From IMG/VR virus record IMGVR_UViG_3300021090_000030, positions 1-50,257 of that record: DNA of 50,257 bases. One strand, written 5' to 3'. Each line of letters begins with the position of its first letter. The stretch's first letter is position 1. The notes under the pieces were generated by a model that was given only the letters and a program-made list of their open reading frames with translations, searched no databases and was not told the DNA's origin. Source of the DNA: a virus. Taxonomy: Duplodnaviria > Caudoviricetes. The translations under genes were made by a program, and so were the position numbers. Positions 6,903-40,850 of the stretch are shown here, piece after piece.

Positions 6903-7229
6903 TTACTCGGCTTCGGTTACTTTCTGATTCGTGCGTTGAAGCGTCGTAATGAAATCAGAATCTTTCAGAAGTTGCTGAATCGCGGCTTCTTCGTCGGCAT
7001 TCATGTACAAGACGAATTTGTTTCTGCCATCTTCACGCTTGCTGTGAGCGCCGCTGGATGCACGCCACGTTTCAAAGTCGCCTAAGTCGATCCAATTCTT
7101 CTCGATTTTCGAATCGCCGATCAGCTCTTTGGTTACCGGCAATTTGCCATGTGCGATCGCCTTTCGAATATATGAATTCGATAAACCACTGATTTCGATC
7201 GCTTCCTTGATACTAATTCTTTTGTTCAT
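6903..7229 (-). CDS. Xis/MerR-like HTH protein, paralog of 5583-5945
   Basis: ISIKEAIEISGLSNSYIRKAIAHGKL; REDGRNKFVLYMNADE; AGGAGA SD. Confidence 0.8.
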   Translation of the reverse strand: MNKRISIKEAIEISGLSNSYIRKAIAHGKLPVTKELIGDSKIEKNWIDLGDFETWRASSGAHSKREDGRNKFVLYMNADEEAAIQQLLKDSDFITTLQRTNQKVTEAE

Positions 7230-17768: not shown

Positions 17769-18430
17769 CCGCTATTGTTTCTGCCTACTATGCGTATAAG
17801 TTCCTGCCAGGCCGTATAGCGAACCTAAGGGAACAAAATCCCCCGCCTCGGATCATAGTTGTGGCTCAACAAGGGTCACGAGAAGCTGAGATAGCAGAGC
17901 AGTGCAAAGTAGTTACACTACTAACTCCCGACATACCAACTATCTATGCTGCATGGAACATGGCCATACGTTTGACCAAAGAAAGTGAGTACATAGTAGT
18001 GGCTAATACGGACGATCGTTTTCATATAGGAGGACTCAAAGTACTCTCCGACGCCTTGGACAGCAACCCCGATATTGCCCTGTGCTATGCTGACAATGAT
18101 ATTGTACTACAGATAGATGGAGACCCCGTCAATCGACATAACTGGGCCAGTGGAGGCTTTGATGAATTGAAAGAGATGTGTTTTATTGGTCCCATGCCTA
18201 TGTGGAGAGCTTCGTTACATTCAAAGCACGGGTACTTTGATGATTTGATGAAGTCAGCTGGAGACTATGAGTTCTGGCTCCGTATAGCAAGTCGAGGCGA
18301 GAAGTTCATGCATCAGCCACGTTCGATAGGAACGTACTTGTATAGAAAAGACAGTGCAGAACGAAGGGAACCTCTTAGGGGTGTTTGGGAGAGTGCTAGA
18401 GCACGAAGTCGTTACATAACCAGATTATAA
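17756..18430 (+). CDS. Family 2 glycosyltransferase
   Basis: VTAIVSAY, IYAAWN, NTDD, GYFD...AGDYEFWLR. Confidence 0.85.
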   Translation: MGTVTAIVSAYYAYKFLPGRIANLREQNPPPRIIVVAQQGSREAEIAEQCKVVTLLTPDIPTIYAAWNMAIRLTKESEYIVVANTDDRFHIGGLKVLSDALDSNPDIALCYADNDIVLQIDGDPVNRHNWASGGFDELKEMCFIGPMPMWRASLHSKHGYFDDLMKSAGDYEFWLRIASRGEKFMHQPRSIGTYLYRKDSAERREPLRGVWESARARSRYITRL

Positions 18431-25921: not shown

Positions 25922-28279
25922 ATGGCAGTCCGAAAAAGCATCAATCAGATAAAATCTGAACTCCAAAATAAGATATTCAAGGGTGGAGAGTACTGGATTG
26001 AGAAGCAGTTTGCCGATTTGGGTAACTATTCTGGAGTTGTAGAAGTCCCTAACACACAAAATATGGTCTATGCCCGCCTGGCTAACGGACAAGTTGTAGA
26101 AGTCTTCAATAACGTTGCTCCGAACATTTACAACTGGAAAGTATCCATAGGTAGGGACAAATCGCAACCGTCTCTTGTAAAGGTTGTCGAAGTACGTTGG
26201 GTGTATAACATTAGAGAAACGATCGCCTATATACTGTTCCATCACAAACAACACGAATACCCTAACCCAGATACAACATGGATAAGTCGTGACAATTTTT
26301 TGCCGTTGTTGGTATTACCTAAGAGTGGATTTACTGTTAGACTGTACGGAGATGTCATTTATTCGTCTAGTATGCCGTATCCGGTACGTGTACTGGATGT
26401 CGATGACTTAGACGTATCATCTTACGTAGTTAGTGCAGGAGCTAGATACGTCTTGCTCGAAGCCGACTCTACTGGAGCTCTAAATTACGTCGTTGGAGAT
26501 ACAGTCACTTCACGAGAAGTTTTATATACTCAACCGTTGCCAGTTCCTACTCTAGGCTCGTTCCCTATTTGTGCTTTCATCTTCTATGAAGGACAAACCG
26601 AGCTGAGAAGGGATAGCGTAGAGAGAACAATTATTGACCTACGCATGTTTACGTCAGATAGTAGCTTGAATGTTGCTGCCCAAATTCATGCCGCTACAGG
26701 TAAAACTACTCCAGTAGACGCTGACGAGTTTGGACTTACGGATAGTGTAGCAAGTTGGATATTGAAGAAGGTAACGTGGACTAACATCAAAGCCACGCTC
26801 AAGATCTACTTTGACACATTATATTCGGCACTTGGACACGTTCACGACGCAGCAGATGTAACCTATACACCTGCGGTGCTTGCAGATTGGGATGGATCTG
26901 CCGATCCTGGGGATGTAGACCAGGCACTGGATCAACTGGCCGAACGTATGACGACGGGGGGTGGTGGCCTACCCAATCCCTTTGCACTAACTGCCGATAT
27001 TACTCCAACTCCACTCTCGGCAAGCGTGAACGACTACGATCCCACAGGATTGTCTACTGCCGATATTATCAGAATTGACGCGGATGATGAACCTTATTCA
27101 ATTACAGGTCTTGTGGGTGGAGCCGATGGCAGGATCGTCATTTTCCATAATGTTAGCAATGATTGGACGATTGATTTTCCGAAAGAGAGTACGTCATCCG
27201 CAGCCGCTAACAGATTCGACTTCCCGAATAGCATCCGGCTCCGATCGAAGCGAACTCTGGTCATTCAGTATGATGCGGCTATATCCAGATGGAGAGCAAT
27301 TGCCAGTGACGATGCAGTCTCAATTCAAGGTGTAGCAATAAATCCGGGTTTGGCATCTCTTCTGGATGTGAACGAGACCCTTGTCTTCGATGGCGAAGAA
27401 CTTGTACCTGCTCCATTTCCCACAGATGAGAGTATTCAGGATATTGTCGGAGCAATGTTTAGTGGAAACACAGAGACAGGCATCACGGCTACTTACCAGG
27501 ATGCTGATGGAACTATCGACCTGGAAGTCACAGGCAGTGGGTATCCCCCCGGACATTTGTTTGGCTGCGAACTGTCGAACAACGGAACCGATCCGACCAA
27601 TGACATTGATATAACTGCCGGGAACTGTCGGGACAGTACAAACGCAGTAGATATGACCATACCAGCACGCATAAAGCGCCTTGATGCGTCGTGGGTGACC
27701 GGGACGAATCAGGGTGGTCTTTCCTCATCTCTAACCATTGCCAATATCACTTATCACGTTTTTGCGATCCGAGTGGCAGGCGTGGATGATGTGGGTTTTG
27801 ATACCAGTGTAGCAGCAGCCAATCTTATTGCGGACCATTCTGCTACCCACATAAGGAGACTCGGCTCTATTATTCGAGTTGCTGGTGTGATTCTGCCGTT
27901 CACCCAGGTAGGTGATTACTTTGAGCTACAGACTCCTGTAAGAGATGCGAATGACGTAGCCGGAGAACTTGGTACTTCATCTAGAACCTATACTCTTGCT
28001 AGTGTTCCGACAGGAATTGTGCTCAGGACAAATATCACCGGCTTTACGTGGAAGGTTGCCAATTATGCTGCGGTGTATGTCCGGGCACTTACTCAGGTGG
28101 ACGTAGCAGCAGCCTACAACACTAACGCGAATGTCTACGATGTCTCAGGTGGAGCCGGAGCATCAAGTAATCTTGTAGTCTGGACAAACACCAGTGCGCA
28201 GATCGCTGCACGGTCGAATGTTACATCTACCAACCTTATTATCATTACTCGCGGCTGGATCGACACACGAGGTCGATGA
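25922..28279 (+). CDS. Tail fibre / receptor-binding protein (modular)
   Basis: 785 aa T/S/D/G-rich mosaic typical of fibres; position. Confidence 0.65.
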   Translation: MAVRKSINQIKSELQNKIFKGGEYWIEKQFADLGNYSGVVEVPNTQNMVYARLANGQVVEVFNNVAPNIYNWKVSIGRDKSQPSLVKVVEVRWVYNIRETIAYILFHHKQHEYPNPDTTWISRDNFLPLLVLPKSGFTVRLYGDVIYSSSMPYPVRVLDVDDLDVSSYVVSAGARYVLLEADSTGALNYVVGDTVTSREVLYTQPLPVPTLGSFPICAFIFYEGQTELRRDSVERTIIDLRMFTSDSSLNVAAQIHAATGKTTPVDADEFGLTDSVASWILKKVTWTNIKATLKIYFDTLYSALGHVHDAADVTYTPAVLADWDGSADPGDVDQALDQLAERMTTGGGGLPNPFALTADITPTPLSASVNDYDPTGLSTADIIRIDADDEPYSITGLVGGADGRIVIFHNVSNDWTIDFPKESTSSAAANRFDFPNSIRLRSKRTLVIQYDAAISRWRAIASDDAVSIQGVAINPGLASLLDVNETLVFDGEELVPAPFPTDESIQDIVGAMFSGNTETGITATYQDADGTIDLEVTGSGYPPGHLFGCELSNNGTDPTNDIDITAGNCRDSTNAVDMTIPARIKRLDASWVTGTNQGGLSSSLTIANITYHVFAIRVAGVDDVGFDTSVAAANLIADHSATHIRRLGSIIRVAGVILPFTQVGDYFELQTPVRDANDVAGELGTSSRTYTLASVPTGIVLRTNITGFTWKVANYAAVYVRALTQVDVAAAYNTNANVYDVSGGAGASSNLVVWTNTSAQIAARSNVTSTNLIIITRGWIDTRGR

Positions 28280-28330
28280 CTTAGAAACATTCCCAATATG
28301 TTGGGATGAAAAACAAAAGGAGTAAATAAC

Positions 28331-28585
28331 ATGTCAGCATTACCTAATTCAAGATCGACTTTCGGGGTTATAGGGGCGGTTGAGATCACACCAGACGATG
28401 ATGTTGATCTCGAAAAGGCCACACGTGGAATTTACGTGGGCGTCGCCGGAAATTTGAAGGTAACTCTGTTGAATGGGGATACAGTCACCTATGTAAATCT
28501 CGCCGCTGGAGTTACACATGCAAAGCAGATAGTAAGGGTATGGGATACCGGTACAACCGCAACTAATATTATCGGAGAATACTAG
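28331..28585 (+). CDS. Head spike base protein (RcGTA Rcc01079-like)
   Basis: ITPDDDVDL..TRGIYVGVAGNLKV...VRVWDTGTTATNI matches the family pattern. Confidence 0.75.
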   Translation: MSALPNSRSTFGVIGAVEITPDDDVDLEKATRGIYVGVAGNLKVTLLNGDTVTYVNLAAGVTHAKQIVRVWDTGTTATNIIGEY

Positions 28586-30130
28586 ATGAAAATAGACATT
28601 GGGTTGTCACTTGGGTCAGGAAGAAAAACAGGGTCGTCTGATGTCATTCAGCCAACTGTGACAATTACCGTTGTGGGTGGAAGTCCTAATGCAAGTCTGC
28701 CCCTTGTTATCGAATTTGCTCTTAGTGAACCATCACCGGATTTCATTTCTAGCTGTGTCGATGTTGATGGTGGAACAATTGCTAATTTTGGAGGGTCTGG
28801 CACTGCCTACACTTGCGAAGGCATGCCTGCTTTGCCAAACGGGACGATGACCTTTGACATAGCTGCCAACGCTTTTCACGATATGGTGGGTAACGGAAAT
28901 GCAGTCGCGACCCAACTGGTTGTGGTGTCAAGTGCGTTTGAGCTTGCCGATGAATTTACCGATACGGTAGCTCCAGGTGCAGTGAATGGATCGACTGCGA
29001 CGCCTACAGGTCAAGCAAGAACAGCCACAGACACAAACTCGAAATTATCCATTGGTTCCGGAGTTGCTAATTTCGCAACGGGTGGTGCCGCAGCAGGAAA
29101 CCCGGGGTTATGGTATCCAGGTAGAGCAAGGGTTGCAGGCAAGGCGTTGATTGCACGTATAGCAGGTACGAACACCAATTACTCTGTTGGATGGGATTCT
29201 AATGCCGCTGGTGGAGTGTCTCAGGCGCTCAACTTTTTCACAACGGGTGTTGTACGTGCGTTCCTTTATGCGATTGTGCCGTTGACAGTTGGTGCGAACC
29301 CTACATCAGGAGCAAATGTATATTGTGCAATTCTCCTGAGAGCCACCGGAGCACGCTTTTTCATTAAGGAGGCAACTGCCTTCTCGAAATGGAGGTTCTT
29401 GTATCCTGATAAGAACGGAGCCGACGCTACAGTATATGCTTCTCTGAACTCACAAGGTGTGACTGCTGTATTCACTTCGGGTTTCATCCGCATTCCTGAA
29501 AATCTTATTATTGCTCCTCCCCTTGCATCGGATGCCTTCACGCGTACAAACGGTGCGTTGGGTAATACAGGTGGGGGAGGTTCAGAAGAATCAGGTGGAA
29601 GTGGTTTGGCTTGGACAAATCAGCTGGGAACAGTTCAGATCTCTGGCAATAAAGCAATGGCGACTGTACTGAGTGGCGATAGAGCTATCTGTACTGTACC
29701 TGTTGGTTCGGAGAGCGCGTTTCTTGAAGCAGCGGTAACTCGTGGAACGACCGGAGTCGGGTTGGTGCTACAATATGTAGATGCAGACAACTATGTTTAT
29801 GTCAGGCGTACTGCTGCAAATGTACAGTTGATAAACCGTGTAGCCGGTGTAGAAACCACTACCATAACCGGAACTCCTGCCGAAGTGAACGGCTCAAGGT
29901 TGATGGGCGTCATTACAGATATAACCACAGAAATAGTTGTACGCACTTACTACAATGAAGCTCTAGTTGGTGGCGAACAATATCTGTCGAATTTTGGCGG
30001 ACATGGAACGTCCGGCGACAAAATGGGTTTGATTTTCTTTGACCTTGACAGTAGTGTTGATAATTTCGTTTGTTGGGCAAGGGGCGTTGAAGATGAGTAT
30101 GAAGATGTGTTCAACAAGTACGCGTTGTAG
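28586..30130 (+). CDS. Head spike/fibre protein with Ig-like and lectin-like domains
   Basis: N-terminal IGLSLG anchor after spike base; PTVTIT...FGGSGTAYT...AANAFHDMVGNGN Ig-like motif. Confidence 0.6.
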   Translation: MKIDIGLSLGSGRKTGSSDVIQPTVTITVVGGSPNASLPLVIEFALSEPSPDFISSCVDVDGGTIANFGGSGTAYTCEGMPALPNGTMTFDIAANAFHDMVGNGNAVATQLVVVSSAFELADEFTDTVAPGAVNGSTATPTGQARTATDTNSKLSIGSGVANFATGGAAAGNPGLWYPGRARVAGKALIARIAGTNTNYSVGWDSNAAGGVSQALNFFTTGVVRAFLYAIVPLTVGANPTSGANVYCAILLRATGARFFIKEATAFSKWRFLYPDKNGADATVYASLNSQGVTAVFTSGFIRIPENLIIAPPLASDAFTRTNGALGNTGGGGSEESGGSGLAWTNQLGTVQISGNKAMATVLSGDRAICTVPVGSESAFLEAAVTRGTTGVGLVLQYVDADNYVYVRRTAANVQLINRVAGVETTTITGTPAEVNGSRLMGVITDITTEIVVRTYYNEALVGGEQYLSNFGGHGTSGDKMGLIFFDLDSSVDNFVCWARGVEDEYEDVFNKYAL

Positions 30131-30142
30131 AAAGGAAAAACT

Positions 30143-31360
30143 ATGACAGAGGAACGTACAACACAAGCAGGACGACTGAGACCAGCCTACAACGCGAACA
30201 CTCTGGTCAATCAACTATTCGCCAAAACTACTAAAGTAACGATAGCAGAGGGAGTAGCTGAAGAGTTTCCTGACGTCTCCTTCTACCAAGCCGTCATTGA
30301 CTGGAACTTGATGAGTGCCCACACCCGGTCAATCATTATCCGTGCAGGCCAGAGGAATTGGGTAGATGAGAAGTTCAAGACCAACTGGGTAGAGGCAAAG
30401 CGTCGAAAACTGTATCGTGGAGTGTACTGGCTCTACGATGGAAGGGAGAGTCCAGGCTTCCAAGCTAATCTTTTGAAGTCTCTAATAGAGCACGACATAC
30501 CTGAGATGGAGATATGGGTAGATTGGGAAATAAACTATAAAGGCTCGTACGAAGGACTCAAGAATGTCGTAGCCATGATGCAAGCTCTAGAAGCTATGTT
30601 CCCAGGAAAGGAAGTAGGTTTGTATTTAGGCTATTATTGGATGATTGCTAATAGCAACGTATTACTCAATTACTCTCAGTACCAGTACTTAAAGACTCGT
30701 CCGCTATGGTTAGGACAATACACACCTTCGCCTATAACTAACTTGCTAATACCGGCACCATTTAGTCTATCAAACCTGCGGCACCACCAATACGGTACGC
30801 CAGTAAGAGGCAAAGAGTTCGGTTGTAGTGGTTCGTACGAGATAGACATGAACCGATACGCAGACCAACAAAAGACATATGCTGAACGTTATAACGTAAC
30901 TACCCCACCAATCGTAATATCAAACGGAGGAACAATGGCTGGAACACCTATTACCCCTTTATGGATGGAAGTAACTGCAACCAAATTGAACGTTAGAAGC
31001 TCTGCGGGCGGTACTGTCCCCGAAACAGATTTGGGCGACCTATACCTACACTCAAAGGTCTTAGTAGACCAAACCTACATGCTCGGAACAATAACCTGGT
31101 ACAGAGCAGTAAAGGCCTACAGCCCCGACGGTAAGCAAGTACTTTTGGCTGACAAAACTCCTTTGGAAGGACATACGAATTGTTGGCTCAGTGGTACGTA
31201 CTTGACTCCCTCGTCAGCCCCTGTGCCCATACCGGACCCTACTCCTGCTCCTATACCCACAGCCGATGAGCTGCATATTGACGTGAGTATTGTAGGCGGA
31301 AAGATAACTGGCTCCCTTGAAGGGGTAGCACAGGGCAAACCATTTACCATAACATACTAA
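30143..31360 (+). CDS. Endolysin, GH25 muramidase-like with SH3-like C-terminal domain
   Basis: DVSFYQ..IDW, IIRA, RGVY, VDWE, LWLGQY, IDMN; LNVRS SH3b-like; PT-rich linker. Confidence 0.8.
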   Translation: MTEERTTQAGRLRPAYNANTLVNQLFAKTTKVTIAEGVAEEFPDVSFYQAVIDWNLMSAHTRSIIIRAGQRNWVDEKFKTNWVEAKRRKLYRGVYWLYDGRESPGFQANLLKSLIEHDIPEMEIWVDWEINYKGSYEGLKNVVAMMQALEAMFPGKEVGLYLGYYWMIANSNVLLNYSQYQYLKTRPLWLGQYTPSPITNLLIPAPFSLSNLRHHQYGTPVRGKEFGCSGSYEIDMNRYADQQKTYAERYNVTTPPIVISNGGTMAGTPITPLWMEVTATKLNVRSSAGGTVPETDLGDLYLHSKVLVDQTYMLGTITWYRAVKAYSPDGKQVLLADKTPLEGHTNCWLSGTYLTPSSAPVPIPDPTPAPIPTADELHIDVSIVGGKITGSLEGVAQGKPFTITY

Positions 31361-32124
31361 TGAGCACCATACGATTCAACTACAGGGGCCTCGGAAGTAA
31401 GCAGTACGTGAAGCTACTTCCGGATACTAAAGTGCCCCAATGGGACTACAAGTGTCGTTCCCTATTTAGTCATTCTGACGGGTTACTAGACAATCACGGA
31501 TACCCGCAAATGGTACCTCTAAAGAGTCGTCATGGTACCAAACTAACTGAATCGTGGCAGCGTTATTTGATGGATGTCCAGTGTGTTTATTACTTTGGTA
31601 TTCCATTCGACTTGCTCTCTAAGGACCGCAGAGATAGGATGATACGGTGGTTTAGTAGTATGTACGACGGTAATAGGTTCATAACTAACAATGCGGGTGT
31701 AGACACTCGTGAAAATGTATTTACGGGTGCACATGAAGGGGCTGGATGGCCTATGGCTCAAGAGGTTGTGTGTGCTGTAAATCTGTTAGAGCTTGACAGC
31801 TTGGAGCCCGAAACAATTGCAGGTGATTTGTGCTACAGAATAAAGACTTTGAACGGAAGTCAACATCCGCCAAACTTTATGAGGGTCAACTACACAACCA
31901 GTCCTGCATATATACATGTTGCCGTTACATGGCTTTATAACGACGATCCTAGCATAACCACGCCTGAGCAAAGATTCAAGACGGGGAACTTCCCCCAAAT
32001 GGAGAATGTAGGTTTTGCTGGTCATTCGCTGTACCCGAATATAAGTCCTGAGGGAATTAATTGGGTAGAAGTAAGTCGTGTTGAGTTAGTTACGTCAGAA
32101 CATATCAATCATTTCGAGGTATGA
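31360..32124 (+). CDS. Hypothetical protein in lysis block
   Basis: 254 aa, coupled to endolysin; no recognisable motif. Confidence 0.7.
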   Translation: MSTIRFNYRGLGSKQYVKLLPDTKVPQWDYKCRSLFSHSDGLLDNHGYPQMVPLKSRHGTKLTESWQRYLMDVQCVYYFGIPFDLLSKDRRDRMIRWFSSMYDGNRFITNNAGVDTRENVFTGAHEGAGWPMAQEVVCAVNLLELDSLEPETIAGDLCYRIKTLNGSQHPPNFMRVNYTTSPAYIHVAVTWLYNDDPSITTPEQRFKTGNFPQMENVGFAGHSLYPNISPEGINWVEVSRVELVTSEHINHFEV

Positions 32125-32125
32125 G

Positions 32126-32701
32126 ATGATAGACGACATCGAACTGAAAGACCTCGTAAGGCTATTGAATGCGTTGTCAGATGCTCACGAGCCTGAAACT
32201 ATGGACCATGCTAGGCGCTGCCGAGAAAGTACCATTCGCATAGCTACGCAGTTAGGTATAAAGGGTATGGAGTTGAGGTATATGGGGTACGCAGCGGATA
32301 TTCATGACATAGGTAAGGTAGGAATATCATCAGACATTATACGTAACCCGGGACAGCTTACTCACTCAGAAAGAGCAGCCATTGAAACACATTGCGACAT
32401 AGGCTACAGAGCTTTAACTCTAGGTGGGGTACCTAAACTTATTACTGAAGCAGTGCTCTACCATCAAGAACATTGGGACGGTTCAGGTTATCCGGAAAAG
32501 CTAGAAGGCATACAGATACCTGTAGGAGCTCGCATCATATGTATTGCAGACATGTGGGACGCGCTGCTAAGCCAAAGGCCCTATAGACCAGCCAAAACAT
32601 TTAAAGAGGGTTTGGAGATCATGAATGAAAATATAAACTGGTTCGACCCAGAAATATACGCTATATGGATAAAACTAGCATACGAGGAGAAACATGGATA
32701 G
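32126..32701 (+). CDS. Stand-alone HD-GYP phosphodiesterase
   Basis: ETMDH, HDIGK, H, HQEHWDGSGYP, ARIICIADMWDA, RPYR. Confidence 0.92.
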   Translation: MIDDIELKDLVRLLNALSDAHEPETMDHARRCRESTIRIATQLGIKGMELRYMGYAADIHDIGKVGISSDIIRNPGQLTHSERAAIETHCDIGYRALTLGGVPKLITEAVLYHQEHWDGSGYPEKLEGIQIPVGARIICIADMWDALLSQRPYRPAKTFKEGLEIMNENINWFDPEIYAIWIKLAYEEKHG

Positions 32702-33122
32702 CTTGACAGTATCTCAATTCTTATCAGGCGTAGTAACCATCATCATTGTACAGCTGTTCGCTATGTGGAATAACAACCGTAATCTGAAGGCACAGGCGCC
32801 TCTAACAAACGCTCAGTCAGAGAGTGAGATATCCGAAGCATGGGAAAGAGTTGCTAACGGGTACGCAAAGCAAATTGAGACTCTTCGAAACCTAGAAACA
32901 GAAAATGCAGAGTTGCGACCCCTGGTACTCAAGCTGGCACTCCAGGCAGAAGCCATAAAGCAGACTCAACGTGATAAAGAGGACTGGAAACGGTATGCAG
33001 AGAAGCTAACTAAACAAGTCGAGGATTGTGGCCAGATGCCCATTCCTTTCCGTCGACTTCCCACTAGTAATGGAGATACGGGACCTTACAAACCTGTCTC
33101 ACCCGTACTTCCCGCAGAATGA
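32694..33122 (+). CDS. Membrane-anchored coiled-coil protein (lysis accessory, putative)
   Basis: N-terminal TM then coiled coil. Confidence 0.55.
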   Translation: MDSLTVSQFLSGVVTIIIVQLFAMWNNNRNLKAQAPLTNAQSESEISEAWERVANGYAKQIETLRNLETENAELRPLVLKLALQAEAIKQTQRDKEDWKRYAEKLTKQVEDCGQMPIPFRRLPTSNGDTGPYKPVSPVLPAE

Positions 33123-33146
33123 CTATACCTACGAAAGGAGGTATCC

Positions 33147-33524
33147 ATGAAAAAACTACTGTTCTTGTTTGTGCTTGTTGTGTTGGTTGGTTGTGCTCCC
33201 GTAGAAGTAAGTCCGACCAGTATCGCAGTCCAAATCCCAATTGAGATTACGACAGCCCTTAGCATAGGCTTCGTTGCCCTCATGACACTCGGAACTGCTT
33301 GGCTACTACAGAAGATCGGACTCGACCTTACAGGATTCGCAACGCCTGTCGCCATGGCTGTTAGCATTTGGGTCGTGGCTGAGCTACAAAACATCATCAA
33401 CACCATCTCTGAGACGTACGATCCCATCTTGAATATTGTTCTCAAGATCATCGTAGTCGTGTTGGGATCGGTTGGCGGTCTTGCTCTACGCCATCGACCG
33501 ACATCAGACACTAGACTGATATAA
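33147..33524 (+). CDS. Holin-like multi-TM protein with lipoprotein-type signal
   Basis: MKK-hydrophobic-LVGC lipobox, then three hydrophobic helices, basic tail. Confidence 0.55.
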   Translation: MKKLLFLFVLVVLVGCAPVEVSPTSIAVQIPIEITTALSIGFVALMTLGTAWLLQKIGLDLTGFATPVAMAVSIWVVAELQNIINTISETYDPILNIVLKIIVVVLGSVGGLALRHRPTSDTRLI

Positions 33525-33569
33525 GAAAAACGGCTGGTATCTACTTCTGATACCAGCCGTCCTTTTCTT
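33523..33569. terminator. Bidirectional intrinsic terminator between convergent arms
   Basis: acggctggtatc/gataccagccgt 12-bp stem flanked by A-rich and T-rich tracts. Confidence 0.85.
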
Positions 33570-33579
33570 GATTGAAAGG

Positions 33580-33909
33580 CTATTCAGTTGGCCCCTCCAT
33601 GTATATGGTTGTTCGTACCCAAATAATGAACCTCTGTACACTCTCATTGATCTCTCCGTCAAAGCTTTCAAGTAGCTTATACAAGCCCACCAAGCTCTTT
33701 CTCTTACCAGTCATCCAACACCATCCCCCTCGTTGTCTGTATACATTACCCCCAAAGATAAGCATGCTGGTACAGTGAACGTAGTGCTTAGAGAAGAAGT
33801 ATAGTTGATGTGCATCACCAGACCTAGTTGTATGAACATAGAATTTGGCAAACTTAGCAAGCACTTCTATGCGGTTCGGTGAAGCAAGTTCATCATACGA
33901 TCTGCTCAT
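33580..33909 (-). CDS. Hypothetical protein
   Basis: 109 aa overlapping polymerase stop. Confidence 0.6.
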   Translation of the reverse strand: MSRSYDELASPNRIEVLAKFAKFYVHTTRSGDAHQLYFFSKHYVHCTSMLIFGGNVYRQRGGWCWMTGKRKSLVGLYKLLESFDGEINESVQRFIIWVRTTIYMEGPTE

Positions 33910-36238
33910 AAAGGACTCCTTCAGGTCTCTTTGCCCAAGTTAGCCTTCTCTCTCCGTTGGCCTTCCACTTAACCTCCGGTAAGTACCTAACACCCATTTC
34001 CTCCATAACTTCAACTCCATACCGTTCCATCTTGTCTGCATCATTGATGTCGACTTCAAGTACTATGCTGTCGTGTACTGTCAGAACGACATTGTGTACT
34101 GACTCCTCAACTTCACAAGCAGACATGAGCGTCAAGTCACTGGCAGTGCCTGCTACGGGAGCATGAACAGCTGCTTTGCGTGCTTCATCCATGTTTACTT
34201 TCGTAATTATAGGGAAATGACGACGTCTACCGAACCTGGACTGTACGAAGCCTTGTACAGCCATCTTGTCGAGCTGCTCCTGCTTGTAGTCGTGAAGTCT
34301 TGGCATTAGTCGATTGTAGTCTTTGACGAATTGTTTCGCCTCCGCAAGAGGCAGTCCAGCGTCACGAGCGAAGCTGTATTCGTTGCCACCATATATGTAT
34401 GAGAAGTTGAACATTTTAGTTCTTACACGCTGTGGCTTGGTATACGCAGATGTGTACATGCCAATGGCTACCTCTGAATGTAGGTCTCTGTCGTCGTCGT
34501 ATACCTTGATGAGGAACGGCTCCATCGCTTCAGCTGCTATCACACGTAGTTCTGCTTGTGAGTAGTCGACGATGAGTAATATCTTCCCGTCTTCAGCAAT
34601 GAACGCCCCACGTATAAGTGCACCAAATACATCATCCGGACGTGGTATGGTTTGCAGAGCAGGATTACGAGCAGACAATCTGCCCATCTCCGTTCCATTC
34701 ATTAAGAACGTTGCATGCACGCGACCGTTGATATCAACTGCTTCTAGAAGATTGTCTGCGTAGGAGTTTTTCATCTTTGCGATACGTCTATACTCCTGTA
34801 GATGGTCGATGAAAGGATGCCTGCCCGACAAAGGCTGCATTGCTTCATGATTAGTAGATCGAGGACCCAACTTCCTACTTCTCTGTAGAGGGAATCCTAA
34901 TGTATCGTAGACAACAACAGCCACTTGCTGAGTAGAACCTAAATTGATTTCCTGTATATTCACCGACTTACAAGCTGCTTCGGTTTCCTCTTCCATCTTA
35001 TTTTCTAGGAACTTTTGAACCTGCTGTAGATAAGGTACGTCTACTCTGATTCCACGAATTTCAATATCGACGAACGCATTCGAGCCGCGCATAGGTATGT
35101 TCTGGAATGGCCACTCATAACGATTCTGTTCCCTGAGTACTTTCGAAAACACCTTTTTTAGTTGTAGTGTTAGTATAACGTCTATACTACCATACTTACT
35201 TAATTCTTCGAAAGGTATCTTCGAGTACCGATCATTACGACTCTTTAGGTACTTCTTAATCAAATGTTCTTCGTAGTCTGGTATCCCGAAGTACTCGTAG
35301 ACAAGAGGTTTCAGGCCGTGCTTTGAATTCTCGTCTATAATGGAATGAGCTAGCATTGTATCGAAATCAAGATGTACGTTTATGCCTAAATGTGTTTTGA
35401 GAAAGATCTGGTCGAATTTGCCGTTGTGCGCTACTGTCTTGACCCTCGCAAAGAACTGACTTAGTATATGCCTCGTCTCTGGAACGTCATACAGCATTAT
35501 ATCATCTAGTACTACGGCATAATCCTCGGCCCAAGCAATTTGTAACATTAGGATGGGGTCAGGAGGCGTTCCGTCGTAGCGTTGGTACCAACGAGTTTGA
35601 TCAGTCTCGATGTCGAATGACACCCACGTATCATTTGGGACTTGACTTAGTACTTCCTCTAGACGTTGAGGAGTCTCGATATGCATGACGTAAGGGTCGG
35701 TCCATTTAGGATTTACAATAACGGGTGGGTCAACAAAACGTTTGACGTCACGCAAGAAGATACCGGCATCGTTTGGAGTACGGAGCACGTAAGCGGGATG
35801 ATATGTATGCATGTATGTCCTTCCTTCAATCTCCGCTAATATTCCTCTACCAAATGACTCTAGATCTAGAGTCTCCGAAGCAGTCCGTCCAAGAGCTAGC
35901 ACAGGGGCGTTCAGGTGGGCCAACTCTAGCATGAGCCTCGGACGGCATGCTTCGACTTCCTCAAACATCGGTTCGCGATTGTTGGGAGGTTTGCACATTA
36001 CTGCATTAGTCTTGTAGACCTCTTCCGTACTAATGTTGGTTTGGCTCAAAGCATAATCCAACAATGAGCCGCTAGGTCCCACGAAAGGCTTGCCTTGCTC
36101 AACTTCCACATTGCCGGGTGCTTCTCCAACTACTATCATCTTGGCGTTCTTAGGTCCAGATGGAGGAACGACAGGGCAAGCCTGTAATGAACATTCGTGA
36201 CATAAAGCGCCAGGTAGTTTACTTAAATCTAAAGACAC
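33893..36238 (-). CDS. polA: Family A DNA polymerase with N-terminal family-4 uracil-DNA glycosylase domain and 3'-5' exonuclease
   Basis: UDG: CxxC, VGEAPG, FVGPSG, CKPPNNREP..C, YHPA; Exo: FDIET, HNGKFD, YGSID; Pol: DYSQAELR, KMFNFSYIYG, VHDS. Confidence 0.95.
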   Translation of the reverse strand: MSLDLSKLPGALCHECSLQACPVVPPSGPKNAKMIVVGEAPGNVEVEQGKPFVGPSGSLLDYALSQTNISTEEVYKTNAVMCKPPNNREPMFEEVEACRPRLMLELAHLNAPVLALGRTASETLDLESFGRGILAEIEGRTYMHTYHPAYVLRTPNDAGIFLRDVKRFVDPPVIVNPKWTDPYVMHIETPQRLEEVLSQVPNDTWVSFDIETDQTRWYQRYDGTPPDPILMLQIAWAEDYAVVLDDIMLYDVPETRHILSQFFARVKTVAHNGKFDQIFLKTHLGINVHLDFDTMLAHSIIDENSKHGLKPLVYEYFGIPDYEEHLIKKYLKSRNDRYSKIPFEELSKYGSIDVILTLQLKKVFSKVLREQNRYEWPFQNIPMRGSNAFVDIEIRGIRVDVPYLQQVQKFLENKMEEETEAACKSVNIQEINLGSTQQVAVVVYDTLGFPLQRSRKLGPRSTNHEAMQPLSGRHPFIDHLQEYRRIAKMKNSYADNLLEAVDINGRVHATFLMNGTEMGRLSARNPALQTIPRPDDVFGALIRGAFIAEDGKILLIVDYSQAELRVIAAEAMEPFLIKVYDDDRDLHSEVAIGMYTSAYTKPQRVRTKMFNFSYIYGGNEYSFARDAGLPLAEAKQFVKDYNRLMPRLHDYKQEQLDKMAVQGFVQSRFGRRRHFPIITKVNMDEARKAAVHAPVAGTASDLTLMSACEVEESVHNVVLTVHDSIVLEVDINDADKMERYGVEVMEEMGVRYLPEVKWKANGERRLTWAKRPEGVLYEQIV

Positions 36239-36437
36239 GGTAAGCCTCCGAAGGTTGTAAGGATTTGAAGGAGTACGGAGCGACGATTATAATCTCGTCC
36301 ACTTTCAGGGCTCTGGCTACTGTCAACGCCTCAGCTAAAAACTCTTCAGTATTAGCTAATACCACACACGTTTTACTTATACGTGAGTAAAAAACCACCG
36401 AATAAGAGACAGAGTTTCCAAAGGAGATCTCAGGCAT
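36219..36437 (-). CDS. Hypothetical protein
   Basis: MPEISFG... start with GGAGA SD overlapping upstream stop. Confidence 0.55.
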   Translation of the reverse strand: MPEISFGNSVSYSVVFYSRISKTCVVLANTEEFLAEALTVARALKVDEIIIVAPYSFKSLQPSEAYRVFRFK

Positions 36438-37170
36438 CTTGTCTCCCAGAGGTCCAAGCAAGTAGTGACAAAGCGTTGTCGTAGGCAAGCCCGGAGTCGA
36501 AGTGCTCGTTCCATACATGCGATATATGTTCTGACTTAACCCTAATAGATCGGCCCTTCTGTGCGTAGGCGAAGGGAGCTGCAGTATCGATTCCACGAAC
36601 CCATGGGGCTATGGCTTTGAGTGCTGGTACTTCGATTCTAGGTTCTCCCCAAACACCTAACAAGTGGATGTTGTAGCTGTTGTGCCAACCCATTTGCTGG
36701 ATGAACGTTAGGATGTTCACTCTACCGTCGCCAAACTGTTCAGTGTGTTTAGGTATACACATGGTAGCAAACTCCATGTTTGATACGAAGAAGTTAGCAC
36801 AGCCCGTCCATTCTTCAAACGTCTCTCCCTGTGGTACCACAGCTCGCATTCTAGCAGGTATGATCTCTAGAACGTCTCGGTCCATGGTTTTCTCGATGGT
36901 AGCTTCGGCATCACGAAGAACGTCAGGCAGGACTACTTCGTCCACATGAAGCATCTGCATTGCGTCGTAAAGTTGTTTAGATGTTAGGAGAGACCCTTCT
37001 GCGGCGCCGTTGTCCATCATTATGAAGTCACCACGACGACTACGTTCTTTATAGAACTCAGCGTACTGAGTATCTTCAAGAAGATATTGGGCTAATACTA
37101 AGTGGTAGGTCAGTCTCATAGAGTTCAGTATCCCGAGACCAGCAAAATCGCTAATCAGTGCCAGTTTCAT
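36430..37170 (-). CDS. TGT-fold transglycosylase-like protein, candidate DpdA-like deazaguanine DNA inserter
   Basis: MDNG, LPD, VVPQG, IHLLG, RGIDT echo TGT/DpdA motifs; coupled to folE. Confidence 0.6.
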   Translation of the reverse strand: MKLALISDFAGLGILNSMRLTYHLVLAQYLLEDTQYAEFYKERSRRGDFIMMDNGAAEGSLLTSKQLYDAMQMLHVDEVVLPDVLRDAEATIEKTMDRDVLEIIPARMRAVVPQGETFEEWTGCANFFVSNMEFATMCIPKHTEQFGDGRVNILTFIQQMGWHNSYNIHLLGVWGEPRIEVPALKAIAPWVRGIDTAAPFAYAQKGRSIRVKSEHISHVWNEHFDSGLAYDNALSLLAWTSGRQDA

Positions 37171-37712
37171 ACGCCTCCTACTAGATGTAGAAACTCTTGA
37201 CGTGCTTCCATAGACGTTAGAAACGCTCCGCGCATCTCACTTGTAACCATAGACGCGTTACGTTCTTTTACTCCACGACATGACATACACGTATGTACAG
37301 ACTTTACGATTACAGCCACGCCCTGTGCCTCTACAGTGTCTTTTAAGAAAGACGCTATGGCACGAGTAAACGTTTCTTGTGTACTTGGACGTGCCGCGAA
37401 GTGATGGACGATGCGAGGAATCTTGCTCACGCCTATCATCAACTTGTTAGGTATGTAACCTACATGGGCAGTGCCCGAAAACGGAAATAAGTGGTGTGCG
37501 CACAGGGCAGAGAACTCGATGCCCCTAACCACTATCAGCTGATTGGCTGTGGCTTTGAACGTTGTCGGATTGAAGTCAACGACCGAGCTTGTCTTGAACT
37601 CGTTCATTGCCTTCATCCAACGTTTGGCCGTCTCGTTGACTGAGTCGTCCCAAACAGTTTCGCCGAACGTGTCGGCTAAGAACTTTGCTAGTTGCTTCTC
37701 AAAAATTGCCAT
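37167..37712 (-). CDS. folE: GTP cyclohydrolase I
   Basis: SALCAHHLFPF, IGVSKIPR, QE, HTCMSCRG. Confidence 0.93.
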   Translation of the reverse strand: MAIFEKQLAKFLADTFGETVWDDSVNETAKRWMKAMNEFKTSSVVDFNPTTFKATANQLIVVRGIEFSALCAHHLFPFSGTAHVGYIPNKLMIGVSKIPRIVHHFAARPSTQETFTRAIASFLKDTVEAQGVAVIVKSVHTCMSCRGVKERNASMVTSEMRGAFLTSMEARQEFLHLVGGV

Positions 37713-37721
37713 GTTGGTCTC

Positions 37722-38405
37722 CTATCTCATATTGAGTCTATATTGTAGTCGATCACCGAAGCGTGGTTGATACTGATGGTAATTAACCTGTCCCTGAGTA
37801 AGGAGTTCCATGGTCTTCTTTATGGACTGAACTCCTGGAGGACATCCCTCAGGCATCAATACAACACCTTCTAGAGTCTTGTCGTTCTCGAAGTAGAAAT
37901 AGTCTATCACTCCCTGCATATCTAGAACTGAGATTTCGTCGTCGACTACGAATTTGATTTCGTTTGTGATGTCTTTCAGCTCTGTAGGAGCTTGGAAGTT
38001 TAGATTCTTTTTCGGCGACCAAGTCACCCAATCTGGCGTTAACGTACCGACAAGGTTTTTGAGTCCCGACGTCTCAAGTTGTGTTGTATATCCCAAAGCC
38101 TTGCACGCCGCCAATATAGGGTCTAAGTTCCAAATGGTGGGTTCGCCCCCTGTAATAATAACGTGCCTTTCGTGGATAGCGTCCATAATCTCCGTTAAGG
38201 TCTTCACCTCACCACCAGGACCCCAAGTGTTTGCCGTCATGCCATTTGTACGACGCTTACCTTCTAACCAATTGGCTAAGGGTCCTGAATCACACCATGA
38301 ACAACCGACAGGACATCCCTGTAACCGAATAAATGTGGCCGGTATGCCCGTTAGAAGGCCTTCCCCTTGTATTGAATCGAACTGTTCATTCACTCTGTAG
38401 TTCAT
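37722..38405 (-). CDS. queE: 7-carboxy-7-deazaguanine synthase (radical SAM)
   Basis: SIQGEG, FIRLQGCPVGCSWCD, TGGEP, ETSG, SPK; start MNYRVNE at 38405. Confidence 0.92.
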   Translation of the reverse strand: MNYRVNEQFDSIQGEGLLTGIPATFIRLQGCPVGCSWCDSGPLANWLEGKRRTNGMTANTWGPGGEVKTLTEIMDAIHERHVIITGGEPTIWNLDPILAACKALGYTTQLETSGLKNLVGTLTPDWVTWSPKKNLNFQAPTELKDITNEIKFVVDDEISVLDMQGVIDYFYFENDKTLEGVVLMPEGCPPGVQSIKKTMELLTQGQVNYHQYQPRFGDRLQYRLNMR

Positions 38406-38406
38406 G

Positions 38407-38961
38407 TTAGCTTCCTGTAGCCCCGTCAAACAACTCACGTAAGACAGGGAATATAATGATGCTGGTTGCAGCGAGTGGCTCACCTATAAGTGAAATACCT
38501 GCAATTAGTATTCTAAATAGTAGATGAGGCATCTGTTCTGCCCCAGTCAAAGTAACGGCCAAGTCAACGAAAGAACCGAACCGAAGGATGTCTGGTGCCA
38601 AGTAGTCAAAGTAAACGTCTATACTTATAGGTATCAAGGCAACCACACATACTGCTATCAAGATACCTCCATTCCATTGTTCTTTGACTCCGTATAAAAC
38701 CGTTCCCATCAAAGCCATTATTAGTCCTGTTGTAGCCAGGGATGTGAACCACCCTACTTGGTTGTTCGACATATGTTCTACACTTACTTGGCCTGCTAGC
38801 ACGTCTATGCCTATCAAGGAGACCAAAGCCGAAACAGCAACCAGGAACGAAAAGACAGCTAGGATGTACGGTCCTAAATCGAACATTCTAGCCAGCAACG
38901 TTGAATTCCTTTTAGTAGCGTAGCCTTGAGGTGTGTGTGGTCTTGCATTTTGATACGTCAT
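38407..38961 (-). CDS. Multi-pass membrane protein
   Basis: About four hydrophobic helices. Confidence 0.7.
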   Translation of the reverse strand: MTYQNARPHTPQGYATKRNSTLLARMFDLGPYILAVFSFLVAVSALVSLIGIDVLAGQVSVEHMSNNQVGWFTSLATTGLIMALMGTVLYGVKEQWNGGILIAVCVVALIPISIDVYFDYLAPDILRFGSFVDLAVTLTGAEQMPHLLFRILIAGISLIGEPLAATSIIIFPVLRELFDGATGS

Positions 38962-38963
38962 GT

Positions 38964-39224
38964 TTACTCTCCTTTCAATCGTTCAGCCATCTGCTTACAT
39001 AGTGTCGCATAACCTATGATGTCGTCGTAGTTATCAAGATGATACGGGTCGGACAGCATACGTATAAGCTTGGATAACATAAGTACCCAATTGTGCGAGA
39101 ACATGGGTGCTGTGTTAAGCATAGCCAAAAACGGGTCTGTCAGGGCACCCATAACCATTCCTGTTAGCTCGTGTGCATTACCGTAATGCTTTTCCTTCTC
39201 GTCGAGTAAGGATTGAATGTTCAT
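38964..39224 (-). CDS. DUF6378-like (MazG-related nucleotide hydrolase-like) protein
   Basis: E..HYG...KLIR...HLDNYDDIIGYA. Confidence 0.65.
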   Translation of the reverse strand: MNIQSLLDEKEKHYGNAHELTGMVMGALTDPFLAMLNTAPMFSHNWVLMLSKLIRMLSDPYHLDNYDDIIGYATLCKQMAERLKGE

Positions 39225-39637
39225 TTGTTCATCTCCAGGTACATTATAGCATTCTGTAACTTTACAGGATCGTCGTCGAACCTACCAAGTCCATGATTGC
39301 ACTTTGCACATAGAAGTCCTCTTACCTTACCCGTCTTGTGGTCGTGATCGATCACCAACTTCTGACCTACACGAGTACATATCCCACAACCCCCTTCTTG
39401 TCGTTCAAACATTTCGTTGAACTGCTCAATGGTAAGGTTGTACAGAACTTTGAGGTTCGACCTTCTATGTATCTGCTTCGTTCGGTTAGCCTTGTGATAC
39501 GCCTTGTGTGCATCCTTTTCGCACTCTTTACAGCGGTTAGAAAGTCCGTCCTTAGAAGCTTTCCTACGATAGAACTCGCTAATAGGCTTCAGTATAGGAC
39601 GGTTTTCTCGCGCCGTGCATCCTGGACATAACTTCAT
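39221..39637 (-). CDS. Endonuclease VII-like HNH nuclease
   Basis: CxxC zinc finger, QEGGCGIC, DHDHKTGKVRGLLCAKCN. Confidence 0.9.
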   Translation of the reverse strand: MKLCPGCTARENRPILKPISEFYRRKASKDGLSNRCKECEKDAHKAYHKANRTKQIHRRSNLKVLYNLTIEQFNEMFERQEGGCGICTRVGQKLVIDHDHKTGKVRGLLCAKCNHGLGRFDDDPVKLQNAIMYLEMNK

Positions 39638-40069
39638 TTAGACTCCTTCGTAAACAGCTACGCTTTTGGGGGTTTCATGTACGATAACTCTTACGTTTTC
39701 GACTTGTAGCATGAAGGCATTACGAACCCATCCATGGATAAGATGTGCTAGGGTCTCAGCCGTACTGTTGGGTACGCCCAAAATGAAAGCATCTCCGCGT
39801 TCGCTGGCAATGACTGCATACGGGTCACCGTGTCGAGTATTGCTCTGCGAGACGAGATACCGATGGTCCATCTGATCTATTAGTGGCTTGACGGCCTGGT
39901 CGAGAAGGCCATAGTCCAACACCATACCCTGTACGTCTAGCGTACCTGAATTTATCTCGACAACAACCTTATAGTTGTGTCCGTGAAGACGACCACACTT
40001 AGGATGTCCTTCGATCCTGTGCGCAGCTGAGAACCAATATTCTCGGGAGATTGTATATCTGTTATACAT
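39638..40069 (-). CDS. queD: 6-carboxytetrahydropterin synthase
   Basis: FSAAH, CGRLHGHNY, DH, STAE, ETP. Confidence 0.93.
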   Translation of the reverse strand: MYNRYTISREYWFSAAHRIEGHPKCGRLHGHNYKVVVEINSGTLDVQGMVLDYGLLDQAVKPLIDQMDHRYLVSQSNTRHGDPYAVIASERGDAFILGVPNSTAETLAHLIHGWVRNAFMLQVENVRVIVHETPKSVAVYEGV

Positions 40070-40850
40070 TGGGCCACTCCTCTAAGTCCTCAGTTGGAAC
40101 TTCTGGTCCCAGTATGTCGACCAACGAAATGTTGTAGCCTGTTGGGTCGTAGAAACCACACTCAGCAAAGGCATTAGCTCGCTCAATACAAGTAGGGCAT
40201 CGACCACAGTGAATGTACTCGTTCAATTCGGTTGTTACTGGATTGTAGCAAGACCAAGTTAGCTGCAGCGGAGCATCCAATTCAACTGCACGAGATACGA
40301 TGTCAGCCTTCGTCATCCAAATAAATGGGAAGACTAGACGGACCTTGTCGTACGTACCAACTCGTATAGCATTTGCCATCGCACCTAAGAACTCAGGTGT
40401 ACAATCTGGATACGCCCAGTCGTGTGCATCATCTCCGTGCGCTCCAATGTATACGTAATCGAATCCTCGTGCATCGGCTAACGCAGTTGCTATACTAAGG
40501 AGATTGGCATTACGGAAGGGTACGACTGTTGGGGAAGGACCTACTGACCCTTTGATTTCCCCATAAGTCATGTGAGGCATCTCAATCTCACCCATCAAAG
40601 CCGACCCGTGTCCATTGCTTGAGAAGATTTCGCTCGGCAAGTCGAAAGTAATACGGTGGATGTCGCACACAAATTCGTACTGCTCTTGGTACCATGCAAC
40701 TATCTGCGCTGCTGCTTGACTCTCTGCTTCGTTATGTAGACCGCCATACCCAATAGATACGGCTAGGATTTCGTCTGCTCCGTCAACGATTGCCTGAGAC
40801 AGTAGTGTGGTACTATCCAAGCCCCCCGAATGCAAGACGACTGCTTTCAT
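40062..40850 (-). CDS. queC: 7-cyano-7-deazaguanine synthase
   Basis: SGGLDS, VPFRN, YPDC, TWSCY, CGRCPTC. Confidence 0.95.
   Translation of the reverse strand: MKAVVLHSGGLDSTTLLSQAIVDGADEILAVSIGYGGLHNEAESQAAAQIVAWYQEQYEFVCDIHRITFDLPSEIFSSNGHGSALMGEIEMPHMTYGEIKGSVGPSPTVVPFRNANLLSIATALADARGFDYVYIGAHGDDAHDWAYPDCTPEFLGAMANAIRVGTYDKVRLVFPFIWMTKADIVSRAVELDAPLQLTWSCYNPVTTELNEYIHCGRCPTCIERANAFAECGFYDPTGYNISLVDILGPEVPTEDLEEWPNV

Follow-up and report, generated by a model that had tools for sequence, protein, structure and literature searches.

A small stand-alone HD-GYP phosphodiesterase homologue beside the lysis genes of an uncultured freshwater-sediment phage

What would a tailed phage gain from a small enzyme that destroys a bacterial second messenger, encoded where the phage prepares to leave its host? 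This question is raised by an IMG/VR virus record of 50,257 bp (IMGVR_UViG_3300021090_000030; Caudoviricetes), which was analysed over its whole length and is called the window throughout. Close to the end of its late operon lies a gene for a homologue of the HD-GYP phosphodiesterases, a family that hydrolyses cyclic dinucleotides such as cyclic di-GMP (c-di-GMP) and 3'3'-cyclic GMP-AMP (3'3'-cGAMP). Sequence comparisons indicate that the gene is one of a lineage of mini HD-GYPs, carried mainly by phages, which passes from phage to phage in the company of lysis-cassette genes. This linkage appears to be undescribed, and a literature search returned nothing on a connection between HD-GYPs and lysis cassettes or on a small phage HD-GYP lineage.

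32126..32701, + strand: stand-alone HD-GYP phosphodiesterase homologue of 191 amino acids, ATG start, recognised by Pfam HD_5, fold and motifs

Family membership is secure by homology and predicted fold. The Pfam HD_5 match (E-value 1.4e-31; 109.9 bits against a cut-off of 27.2) covers residues 16-177 of the 191 and leaves no space for a sensor domain, which bears out the sequence-only reading of exactly this open reading frame (ORF) as a stand-alone HD-GYP protein. An AlphaFold2 model built from a 17-sequence alignment has a mean predicted local distance difference test score (pLDDT) of 95.2 and a predicted template modelling score (pTM) of 0.91. The top eight Foldseek rows for this model are chains of three solved HD-GYP entries (9rbz, 4r8z and 4mcw) with template modelling scores of 0.81-0.84 by query length, led by c-di-GMP-bound DvhD (9rbz, 0.84) and followed by PA4781 and PmGH. 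These c-di-GMP-specific enzymes (PmGH, 4mcw; PA4781, 4r8z; DvhD, 9rbz) share with the window protein the fold, the ligand positions, the GYP loop and the Rxx(K/R) motif, whereas they differ in being longer full-length proteins (the PmGH chain has 369 amino acids, and a PAS/HD-GYP construct of DvhD, 9rc0, has been solved as well) and in having an HH pair in the metal site. By sequence, the top solved relative is the C-terminal HD-GYP of V-cGAP3 (98 bits), ahead of PmGH, PA4781 and DvhD. V-cGAP3 is a 3'3'-cGAMP phosphodiesterase of V. cholerae (PDB 5z7c) with an HD-[HD-GYP] architecture; window residues 2-180 align to its residues 271-450, and both proteins carry the base-reading motif RPYR. V-cGAP3 differs in its length of 463 amino acids, its extra N-terminal HD module, its chromosomal location and its HH pair, the window protein being a 191-residue single domain with HQ; only one matched stretch was found in it, and not the tandem of degenerate HD and HD-GYP modules seen in V-cGAP-type enzymes. 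The remaining family searches add little: no PHROG family matched, the one NCBIfam match, to a c-di-GMP phosphodiesterase response-regulator model, is below threshold, and PADLOC gave weak matches to Cas3-type HD nuclease models (E-values 0.006 to 5e-5) that reflect generic HD similarity only.

Would this protein still cleave a cyclic dinucleotide? Its active site was compared with viral homologues from IMG/VR. A scan with a diverse HD-GYP alignment gave 288 pattern matches; a relative is encoded in at least 155 of these, from which the 80 best were retained. A single-protein pattern scan with the window HD-GYP gave no match. Alignments locate all six core metal ligands in the window protein (H28, H60, D61, H89, H113 and D142) together with the motif residues E24, K64 and D145, and the H, HD, H, H and D ligands are invariant in all 80 viral HD-GYPs. 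E24 corresponds to the eighth ligand of the PmGH type (PmGH E185), a Glu that relatives do not conserve (19 of the 80). The GYP loop is intact (G121-Y122-P123 within HWDGSGYP). The guanine-recognition motif Rxx(K/R) is present as R151-P-Y-R154 and aligns with R314 and K317 of PmGH, which read a guanine of c-di-GMP according to the accessible text of PMC4159591; Rxx[R/K] occurs in 77 of the 80 as well as in the window. The RxxQ/N signature, which marks cGAMP-selective enzymes of the PmxA type in the accessible part of bioRxiv 10.1101/600031, does not occur in the window protein, which has RxxR.

The departure from the family pattern is at the seventh ligand. The second His of the HH pair (H277 in PmGH), described as typical of HD-GYPs in the accessible part of a review (PMC8177086), is Q114 in the window (H113-Q114-E115), so that the sequence-only reading overstated the matter in calling the enzyme intact, correct as it was about the presence of metal-binding and GYP motifs. 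Replacement of H277 by Ala essentially abolished PmGH activity (PMC4159591, accessible text), and the activity of the window protein may for this reason be reduced or altered. At this position the 80 viral HD-GYPs have H in 74 cases, Q in 5 and M in 1. The rarity of Q or M (6 of 80) and the PmGH mutant are the points in favour of an impaired or re-purposed protein, in which the Q114 form would serve as a nucleotide sponge, cleave linear pGpG-type products or act on some other phosphoester. This alternative is highly doubtful in view of the other ligands, K64, D145, GYP and RxxR, which are all intact, and of the alternation of H and Q among close relatives: of the 9 proteins in the nearest clade, 4 carry Q, and no other residue of the site varies, as expected if both residues work. 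Glutamine is able to ligate metals. Q114 is thus best read as a variant metal site that probably still works and as the main caveat on activity. In the first step of the proposed mechanism, R151/R154 and the GYP loop would bind a guanine-containing 3'3' cyclic dinucleotide, which would be cleaved at a di- or tri-metal centre with Gln114 in place of the seventh His ligand; the default substrate would be c-di-GMP, with 3'3'-cGAMP a likely second. Binding and cleavage of this kind are considered likely from the sequence and the modelled fold. The V. cholerae cGAPs are described as cleaving c-di-GMP and 3'3'-cGAMP alike in the accessible part of the same review (PMC8177086).

When would such an enzyme be made? 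The genes around it are as follows.

30143..31360, + strand: glycoside hydrolase family 25 (GH25)-type endolysin of 405 amino acids (Pfam Glyco_hydro_25, E-value 3.7e-09; PHROG 291 'endolysin', E-value 6.6e-18)
31360..32124, + strand: protein of 254 amino acids without a known family (ORF), start overlapping the endolysin stop
32116..32119, + strand: GAGG, Shine-Dalgarno-like, 6 nt before the HD-GYP ATG, read from the sequence
32694..33122, + strand: 'TMcc-B', single-pass membrane protein of 142 amino acids with a coiled-coil-like helical region (ORF, hydropathy)
33147..33524, + strand: multi-transmembrane (multi-TM) protein of 125 amino acids with a lipobox-like N-terminus (LVGC), candidate holin-type protein (from sequence)
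33530..33560, + strand: terminator-like hairpin with a 12-pair stem (7 GC) and a T-rich tail

The tight packing that had been noticed from the sequence alone is confirmed in detail: the upstream stop codon (32122-32124) ends one base ahead of the HD-GYP ATG, the HD-GYP stop and the TMcc-B ATG (32694) overlap by 8 nt, the endolysin lies upstream and two membrane proteins follow. The overlap makes translational coupling of HD-GYP and TMcc-B probable. No sigma-70-like promoter site was found on the + strand from 27500 to 34500, and the hairpin ends the late + strand operon after its last gene, the multi-TM gene, facing a convergent replication operon; these two observations and the 1-nt and -8-nt junctions point to late co-transcription. 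The product would accordingly be a minimal cytoplasmic HD-GYP metallo-phosphodiesterase transcribed with the late and lysis genes and probably coupled to translation of TMcc-B. The labels lysis cassette and holin side, also given by the sequence-only reading, stand in part: they are supported by the endolysin family matches and by the comparative context below, while neither membrane protein has a family match to a known holin. TMcc-B, with a transmembrane (TM) segment at about residues 6-23 followed by a helical, coiled-coil-like stretch in the hydropathy profile, and the multi-TM protein match no Pfam or PHROG family above threshold, including a Pfam search at an E-value of 0.5 on 18 neighbour proteins. 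The 254-residue protein has no Pfam, PHROG or PADLOC match and gave none in a single-protein pattern scan of IMG/VR, and an ESM Atlas look-up of it and of the TMcc proteins returned no usable family. A connection to CRP-like early boxes, offered earlier by analogy with Xanthomonas Clp, found no support: TGTGA-N6-TCACA with at most one mismatch occurs 2 times against 2.4 expected, and a Pfam scan of 50 window ORFs detected no CRP, PilZ, GGDEF or EAL domain.

Is this arrangement peculiar to the window? The synteny survey proposed with the first reading suggests that it is not. When L119 (= G001) and L144 (= G002), the loci of two close relatives described below, are taken away from the 80 kept, 78 loci are left, and in at least 10 of these homologues of the window's four lysis-side neighbours adjoin HD-GYPs; among the other window proteins, only 3 of 51 match any of those HD-GYP loci. 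Endolysin homologues lie within a few kb of HD-GYPs in L121/L125 (45% identity), L126 (53%) and L139 (33%), and multi-TM homologues are near them in L121/L125 (42%) and L197 (39%). In L122-L124, which are near-identical and hence not independent, a homologue of the 254-residue protein (27%) follows a GH25 endolysin as the second gene downstream of the HD-GYP; the order in L122 is HD-GYP, GH25 endolysin, a 253-residue homologue and terminase. A TMcc-B homologue is directly downstream of the HD-GYP in L129 (51%), L175 (39%) and L115 (35%), and in L175 the order continues with a GH25 endolysin and terminase. Seven IMG/VR loci with TMcc-B were found: an HD-GYP ends just upstream in five (G002, L129/L191, L175/L194, L115/L196 and L197, the last being a receiver-fused form), and two are without one. 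With the window counted, the pairing holds in 6 of 8 genomes. Of the two loci that lack an HD-GYP, L192 has TMcc-B flanked by a GH25 endolysin on one side and a lipobox multi-TM protein on the other, the latter similar to that of the window and two genes upstream, and L193 has TMcc-B just upstream of terminase genes. Multi-TM homologues or TMcc-B flank endolysins in L192, L175 and L121.

The position after the HD-GYP is occupied by a membrane protein more often than expected. A co-directional ORF starts between -60 and +150 nt after 27 of the 30 small viral HD-GYPs (235 amino acids or fewer), often with a 4-nt overlap, and 15 of these 27 ORFs encode a TM segment, compared with 198 of 800 ORFs in the background (Fisher p 8e-4); addition of two family B members below the hydropathy threshold raises this to 17 of 27 (p 4e-5). 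The near-identical L122-L124 are not independent cases in these counts. No fewer than three families can be told apart among the downstream proteins: A, from 7 loci; B, from 5 with the window counted; and C, from 4. None matches a known family, and a profile comparison of A with B shows no detectable relationship (hhalign probability 0.3%). TMcc-B has 0 K/R before its TM segment and 2 after it. All forms with an N-terminal TM segment have 0-1 before and 1-7 after, and those with a C-terminal TM segment are K/R-rich before it. By the positive-inside rule TMcc-B is therefore predicted to be N-out/C-in, with the coiled coil cytoplasmic in every form and predicted to share a compartment with the enzyme. 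The same charge distribution makes an i-spanin reading of TMcc-B unlikely. A conserved protein of about 110 residues (...GVPYAWL.PQ...) follows TMcc-B in L090:9539-9865 (G002) and in L193:3925-4263; it has no family match, the contigs are unrelated, and it may be another lysis-cassette component.

This pairing raises the alternative that the HD-GYP works with or on TMcc-B, the cyclic-dinucleotide level gating hole formation or endolysin release, and a host kinase signal doing so in versions fused to a receiver (REC) domain. The start-stop overlaps between HD-GYP and next gene in the window and in many loci, the recurrence of at least three sequence-unrelated single-pass coiled-coil families (A, B and C) in the downstream position and the predicted cytoplasmic coiled coil, in the compartment of the enzyme, are all in its favour, as is the placement of the coiled-coil protein directly before the endolysin, the usual holin position, in L175 and L139. 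The idea is nonetheless improbable. The coiled-coil topology comes from a single rule, the positive-inside rule, adjacency may simply reflect moron insertion at the head of the lysis cassette, and in 2 of the 8 genomes, L192 and L193, no HD-GYP accompanies TMcc-B. A wider version, also unlikely, would take a mini or REC-fused HD-GYP and a cytoplasmic coiled-coil membrane protein, tail- or head-anchored, as a two-gene unit that heads lysis cassettes as a second-messenger-gated lysis clock, in which a cyclic-dinucleotide or host kinase signal times the breach of the membrane; such a clock could pre-empt the membrane-attacking effectors of cyclic-oligonucleotide-based antiphage signalling systems (CBASS).

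REC-HD-GYPs with the architecture of RpfG, in contrast to the window protein, which has no REC domain, lie beside lysis-type genes in four genomes:

L090:10337-11284: REC-HD-GYP of G002
L197:922-1866: REC-HD-GYP of L197
L139:383-1315: REC-HD-GYP of L139
L121:4533-5504: REC-HD-GYP of L121, its REC match just under the Pfam cut-off

A response regulator borne by a phage implies input from a host kinase, and no partner kinase was found in the window ORFs scanned.

How stable is the gene in its slot? A search with the capsid protein found three related IMG/VR records (G001, G002 and G003). The window is collinear with G001 and G002, whose core proteins are 45-83% identical to its own, and in both the corresponding slot holds an HD-GYP, preceded by tail-fibre genes, followed by single-pass coiled-coil and multi-TM proteins and facing the polymerase; G003 is a 32%-complete fragment that stops short of this region. 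In G001 the HD-GYP is stand-alone with 195 amino acids (37-40% identical), and in G002 it is a REC-HD-GYP with 315 amino acids (34-35% identical; Response_reg 33.2 bits against a cut-off of 30.2). The G002 receiver has an acidic pair, a DxxMP aspartate, a Ser and a Lys, which we take to be the conserved receiver residues. Multi-TM homologues keep the same position in G001 (36%) and G002 (31%). The window's Big_12 protein, endolysin and 254-residue gene have no homologue in G001 or G002, and the endolysin has none in G003 either. A further search based on the polymerase gave 11 more distant relatives (polymerase 46-54% identical). The late operon of one of these, G005, ends in a tail fibre, a 91-residue gene, a coiled-coil protein with a C-terminal TM segment and a multi-TM protein, with no HD-GYP. 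The gene is accessory to a single sub-lineage, and none of the three members seen is without it. Its presence in the same slot in both close relatives argues against a sporadic degenerate insertion, the outcome that was to have counted against the earlier reading, even with none in ten more distant relatives.

The slot has a mixed history. The HD-GYPs of the window, G001 and G002 each have nearer relatives elsewhere than in the sister phages. In a 139-row tree (quick IQ-TREE), the window protein belongs to a starred clade of 8 small proteins, that of G001 to another such clade, of 12, and that of G002 lies within a third, of 67, which includes REC-, GAF- and PAS-HD-GYPs. The few members of this last clade that have names come from bacterial metagenome bins, Chloroflexota (Anaerolineae) in several cases. 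Joining the three small clades in a 56-row subset costs 37 log-likelihood units (approximately unbiased (AU) test p 0.0095), the subset and its groups having been picked after the 139-row tree was viewed. The tree and the AU test together indicate that HD-GYPs entered the slot on at least two occasions and from different sources.

How common are such small enzymes among viruses? Thirty of the 80 viral HD-GYPs kept are 235 amino acids or shorter. A 148-row tree (LG+G4, quick) places 25 of the 31 small viral HD-GYPs in one group with 17 small database proteins, apart from the multi-domain forms (SH-like approximate likelihood ratio test (SH-aLRT) 90, not starred). PHROG annotation was made for 29 loci, comprising 27 of the 30 small ones (without G001 and two L122 duplicates) plus L121 and L139, which were added because the neighbour-homologue search had already flagged them; a second annotation round took ORFs of at least 150 amino acids. 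A terminase large subunit lies within 4 kb in 19 of the 27 small loci; L121 and L139 have an endolysin within this distance. Beyond IMG/VR, a metagenome scan returned at least 585 relatives, mostly ordinary bacterial HD-GYPs, the best being 42% identical among the matches listed, and the near clade was not returned. A profile search of 1.84 billion representatives gave 136,176 matches at an E-value of 0.001 and 57,590 at 1e-30; the best 150 of these include only 10 single-stretch proteins of 210 amino acids or fewer. Two-module proteins dominate the top matches as their scores add up, so this search does not size the mini clade. Among deposited phages (50,697 records, E-value 1e-5), matches were found in 28 unannotated faecal 'Bacteriophage sp.' contigs and one further record, 'Microcystis phage MaAM05'. 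The latter was rejected as a cultured-phage precedent: its 462-residue HD-GYP (L198, MW495066.1 30586-39032; 273,876 bp) sits among the bacterial housekeeping genes trxB, coaD, tRNA-Trp, secE, nusG and rplK, for which reason the region looks like bacterial chromosome.

What purpose would the enzyme serve? It is proposed that, made only with the lysis proteins, it would make the messenger pool collapse as infection enters its final phase, a second step that follows from the gene's context. As a third step, the drop in c-di-GMP would turn off envelope functions that depend on it allosterically, for example exopolysaccharide synthases, adhesin retention and c-di-GMP-dependent receptors, and the bursting cell and its debris would retain or re-adsorb fewer progeny. 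Dependence on c-di-GMP has reportedly been described for an E. coli phage receptor glycan (PMC8669472). The whole chain, from late removal of c-di-GMP to easier release, is put forward tentatively. The occurrence of the same pairing of HD-GYP and lysis genes in many unrelated uncultured phages suggests, at the level of gene order, that phages erase a host signal as the cell lyses.

The closest competitor is counter-defence, in which the enzyme would destroy 3'3'-cGAMP, or c-di-GMP made by a CBASS cyclase, once late proteins trigger that defence, so that premature host-driven death is averted and the phage lysis genes keep control of timing. Jumbo-phage HD-GYPs were predicted to be counter-nucleotide enzymes in the accessible text of Iyer et al. 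2021 (PMC7824862), and a purified phage HD-GYP degrades 3'3'- but not 2'3'-cGAMP in the accessible part of a preprint (10.64898/2026.07.21.739742). The same purpose would fit V-cGAP3 as best solved sequence match, an absent sensor domain, which makes the enzyme probably constitutive, and the filling of the slot on two or more occasions from separate sources, a pattern that arms-race genes would be expected to show. It would also fit the signature linked to cGAMP selectivity in the sister clade of the G001 type (L089:9885-10472), where RxxA is found in G001 and P0061 and RxxQ in 4 of the 9 nearest database neighbours of G001 (P0059, P0060, P0062 and P0066). Set against this, the window motif is the canonical c-di-GMP type RxxR, and REC-regulated forms in the same slot would be odd for a scavenger of alarm signals. 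A place at the very end of a late operon is also unlike that of early anti-defence gene clusters. The deposited matches include no cultured phage of a well-studied CBASS host. Counter-defence is, on balance, somewhat unlikely, but the removal of c-di-GMP at release is only slightly favoured over it, and the support for the two is almost equal. The preference for c-di-GMP is drawn from RxxR, from the REC forms in the same slot, from retention of the gene in every close relative and from the lack of cultured phages of well-studied CBASS hosts among the deposited matches.

Several observations weigh against a role of c-di-GMP removal in release. A late enzyme has little time to alter the phenotype of the cell. 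The HD-GYP is absent from all 10 whole records of the more distant relatives (two are 86% and 73% complete, the other eight under 50%) and from their loci, and it is hence not essential for this type of phage. A recognised endolysin lies within 4 kb in only 5 of the 27 small loci (L116, L118, L122, L126 and L175), and with terminase near in 19 of 27 the description 'late region' is better supported in general than 'lysis cassette'. Q114 stands at the very position where Ala essentially abolished activity in PmGH. The closest solved sequence, V-cGAP3, is a cGAMP phosphodiesterase, which fits counter-defence too, and the only phage HD-GYP assayed degraded 3'3'-cGAMP, as far as the accessible text of the preprint goes (10.64898/2026.07.21.739742).

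The published phage HD-GYPs, from jumbo phages (Iyer et al. 2021) and 'Ph-HD-GYP-2' (bioRxiv 2026.07.21.739742), resemble the window protein in being phage-encoded and in having the GYP loop. They differ in belonging to jumbo phages, one named contig being of 310 kb, and the accessible parts of these papers mention no lysis link, mini clade or REC fusion. The 2026 preprint lists, in its accessible part, only two GYP-bearing viral matches in its protein compendium (10.64898/2026.07.21.739742). If counter-defence holds, the enzyme would also be like the Acb1/Apyc1-type phosphodiesterases, small phage enzymes that remove a host signalling nucleotide. The folds of Acb1 and Apyc1, 2H and metallo-beta-lactamase, differ from HD-GYP.

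The phage that carries the gene has about 46% G+C and is rated 93% complete; no tRNA genes were found in the window, and no near relative exists among deposited phages. The sequence occurs in 2 DNA sequencing runs, both freshwater sediment metagenomes and one of them probably its source, and no RNA run is listed. Contig scans for host assignment, with the capsid alignment and with the TMcc-B alignment, gave no relative. PHROG and Pfam annotation divides the window into three blocks, as expected of a tailed phage:

minus strand: early block
about 9.2 kb to 33.5 kb, + strand: late operon with terminase, portal, capsid and tail genes (PHROG/Pfam)
minus strand, convergent: replication block with UDG-PolA polymerase, 7-deazaguanine set, primase, nucleases and helicase (PHROG/Pfam)

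The DNA polymerase (33893-36238, - strand) is a fusion of a uracil-DNA-glycosylase-superfamily domain, a 3'-5' exonuclease and a family A polymerase; its identity is 58-60% in G001/G002 and 46-54% in the 11 further IMG/VR contigs. A 7-deazaguanine DNA-modification set adjoins it (36430-40850, - strand) and is kept in G001 and G002:

36430-37170, - strand: conserved protein of 245 amino acids, unknown PHROG, candidate transglycosylase
37167-37712, - strand: GTP cyclohydrolase I
37722-38483, - strand: QueE-like radical SAM protein
39638-40069, - strand: QueD/PTPS
40062-40850, - strand: QueC

The structural module holds an MptE-like gene (Pfam E-value 2.1e-10) and a family 2 glycosyltransferase (E-value 1.7e-06) at 17136-18430 (+ strand), common to G001 and G002, which might glycosylate virion proteins. 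The early ORFs 5583-6023 and 6903-7229 (- strand) match one single gene in G001, G002 and G003 (47-62% identity), which suggests that in the window they are a duplicated pair.

The enzymes with which phages erase nucleotide messengers of their hosts are under active study at present, and the least explored class among them is that of the HD-GYPs. The locus described here offers a well-modelled, domain-only enzyme of 191 amino acids to assay. Not found in print are a wide distribution of small HD-GYPs in ordinary-sized uncultured phages as a largely viral group, their travel with lysis-cassette genes, usually followed by a single-pass coiled-coil membrane protein, and the occupation of a single slot by HD-GYPs that differ in origin, some of them receiver-regulated. 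Should the lysis link prove functional, compact tools for degrading c-di-GMP or cGAMP would be on offer, and second-messenger signalling would be connected with the timing or the success of phage release.

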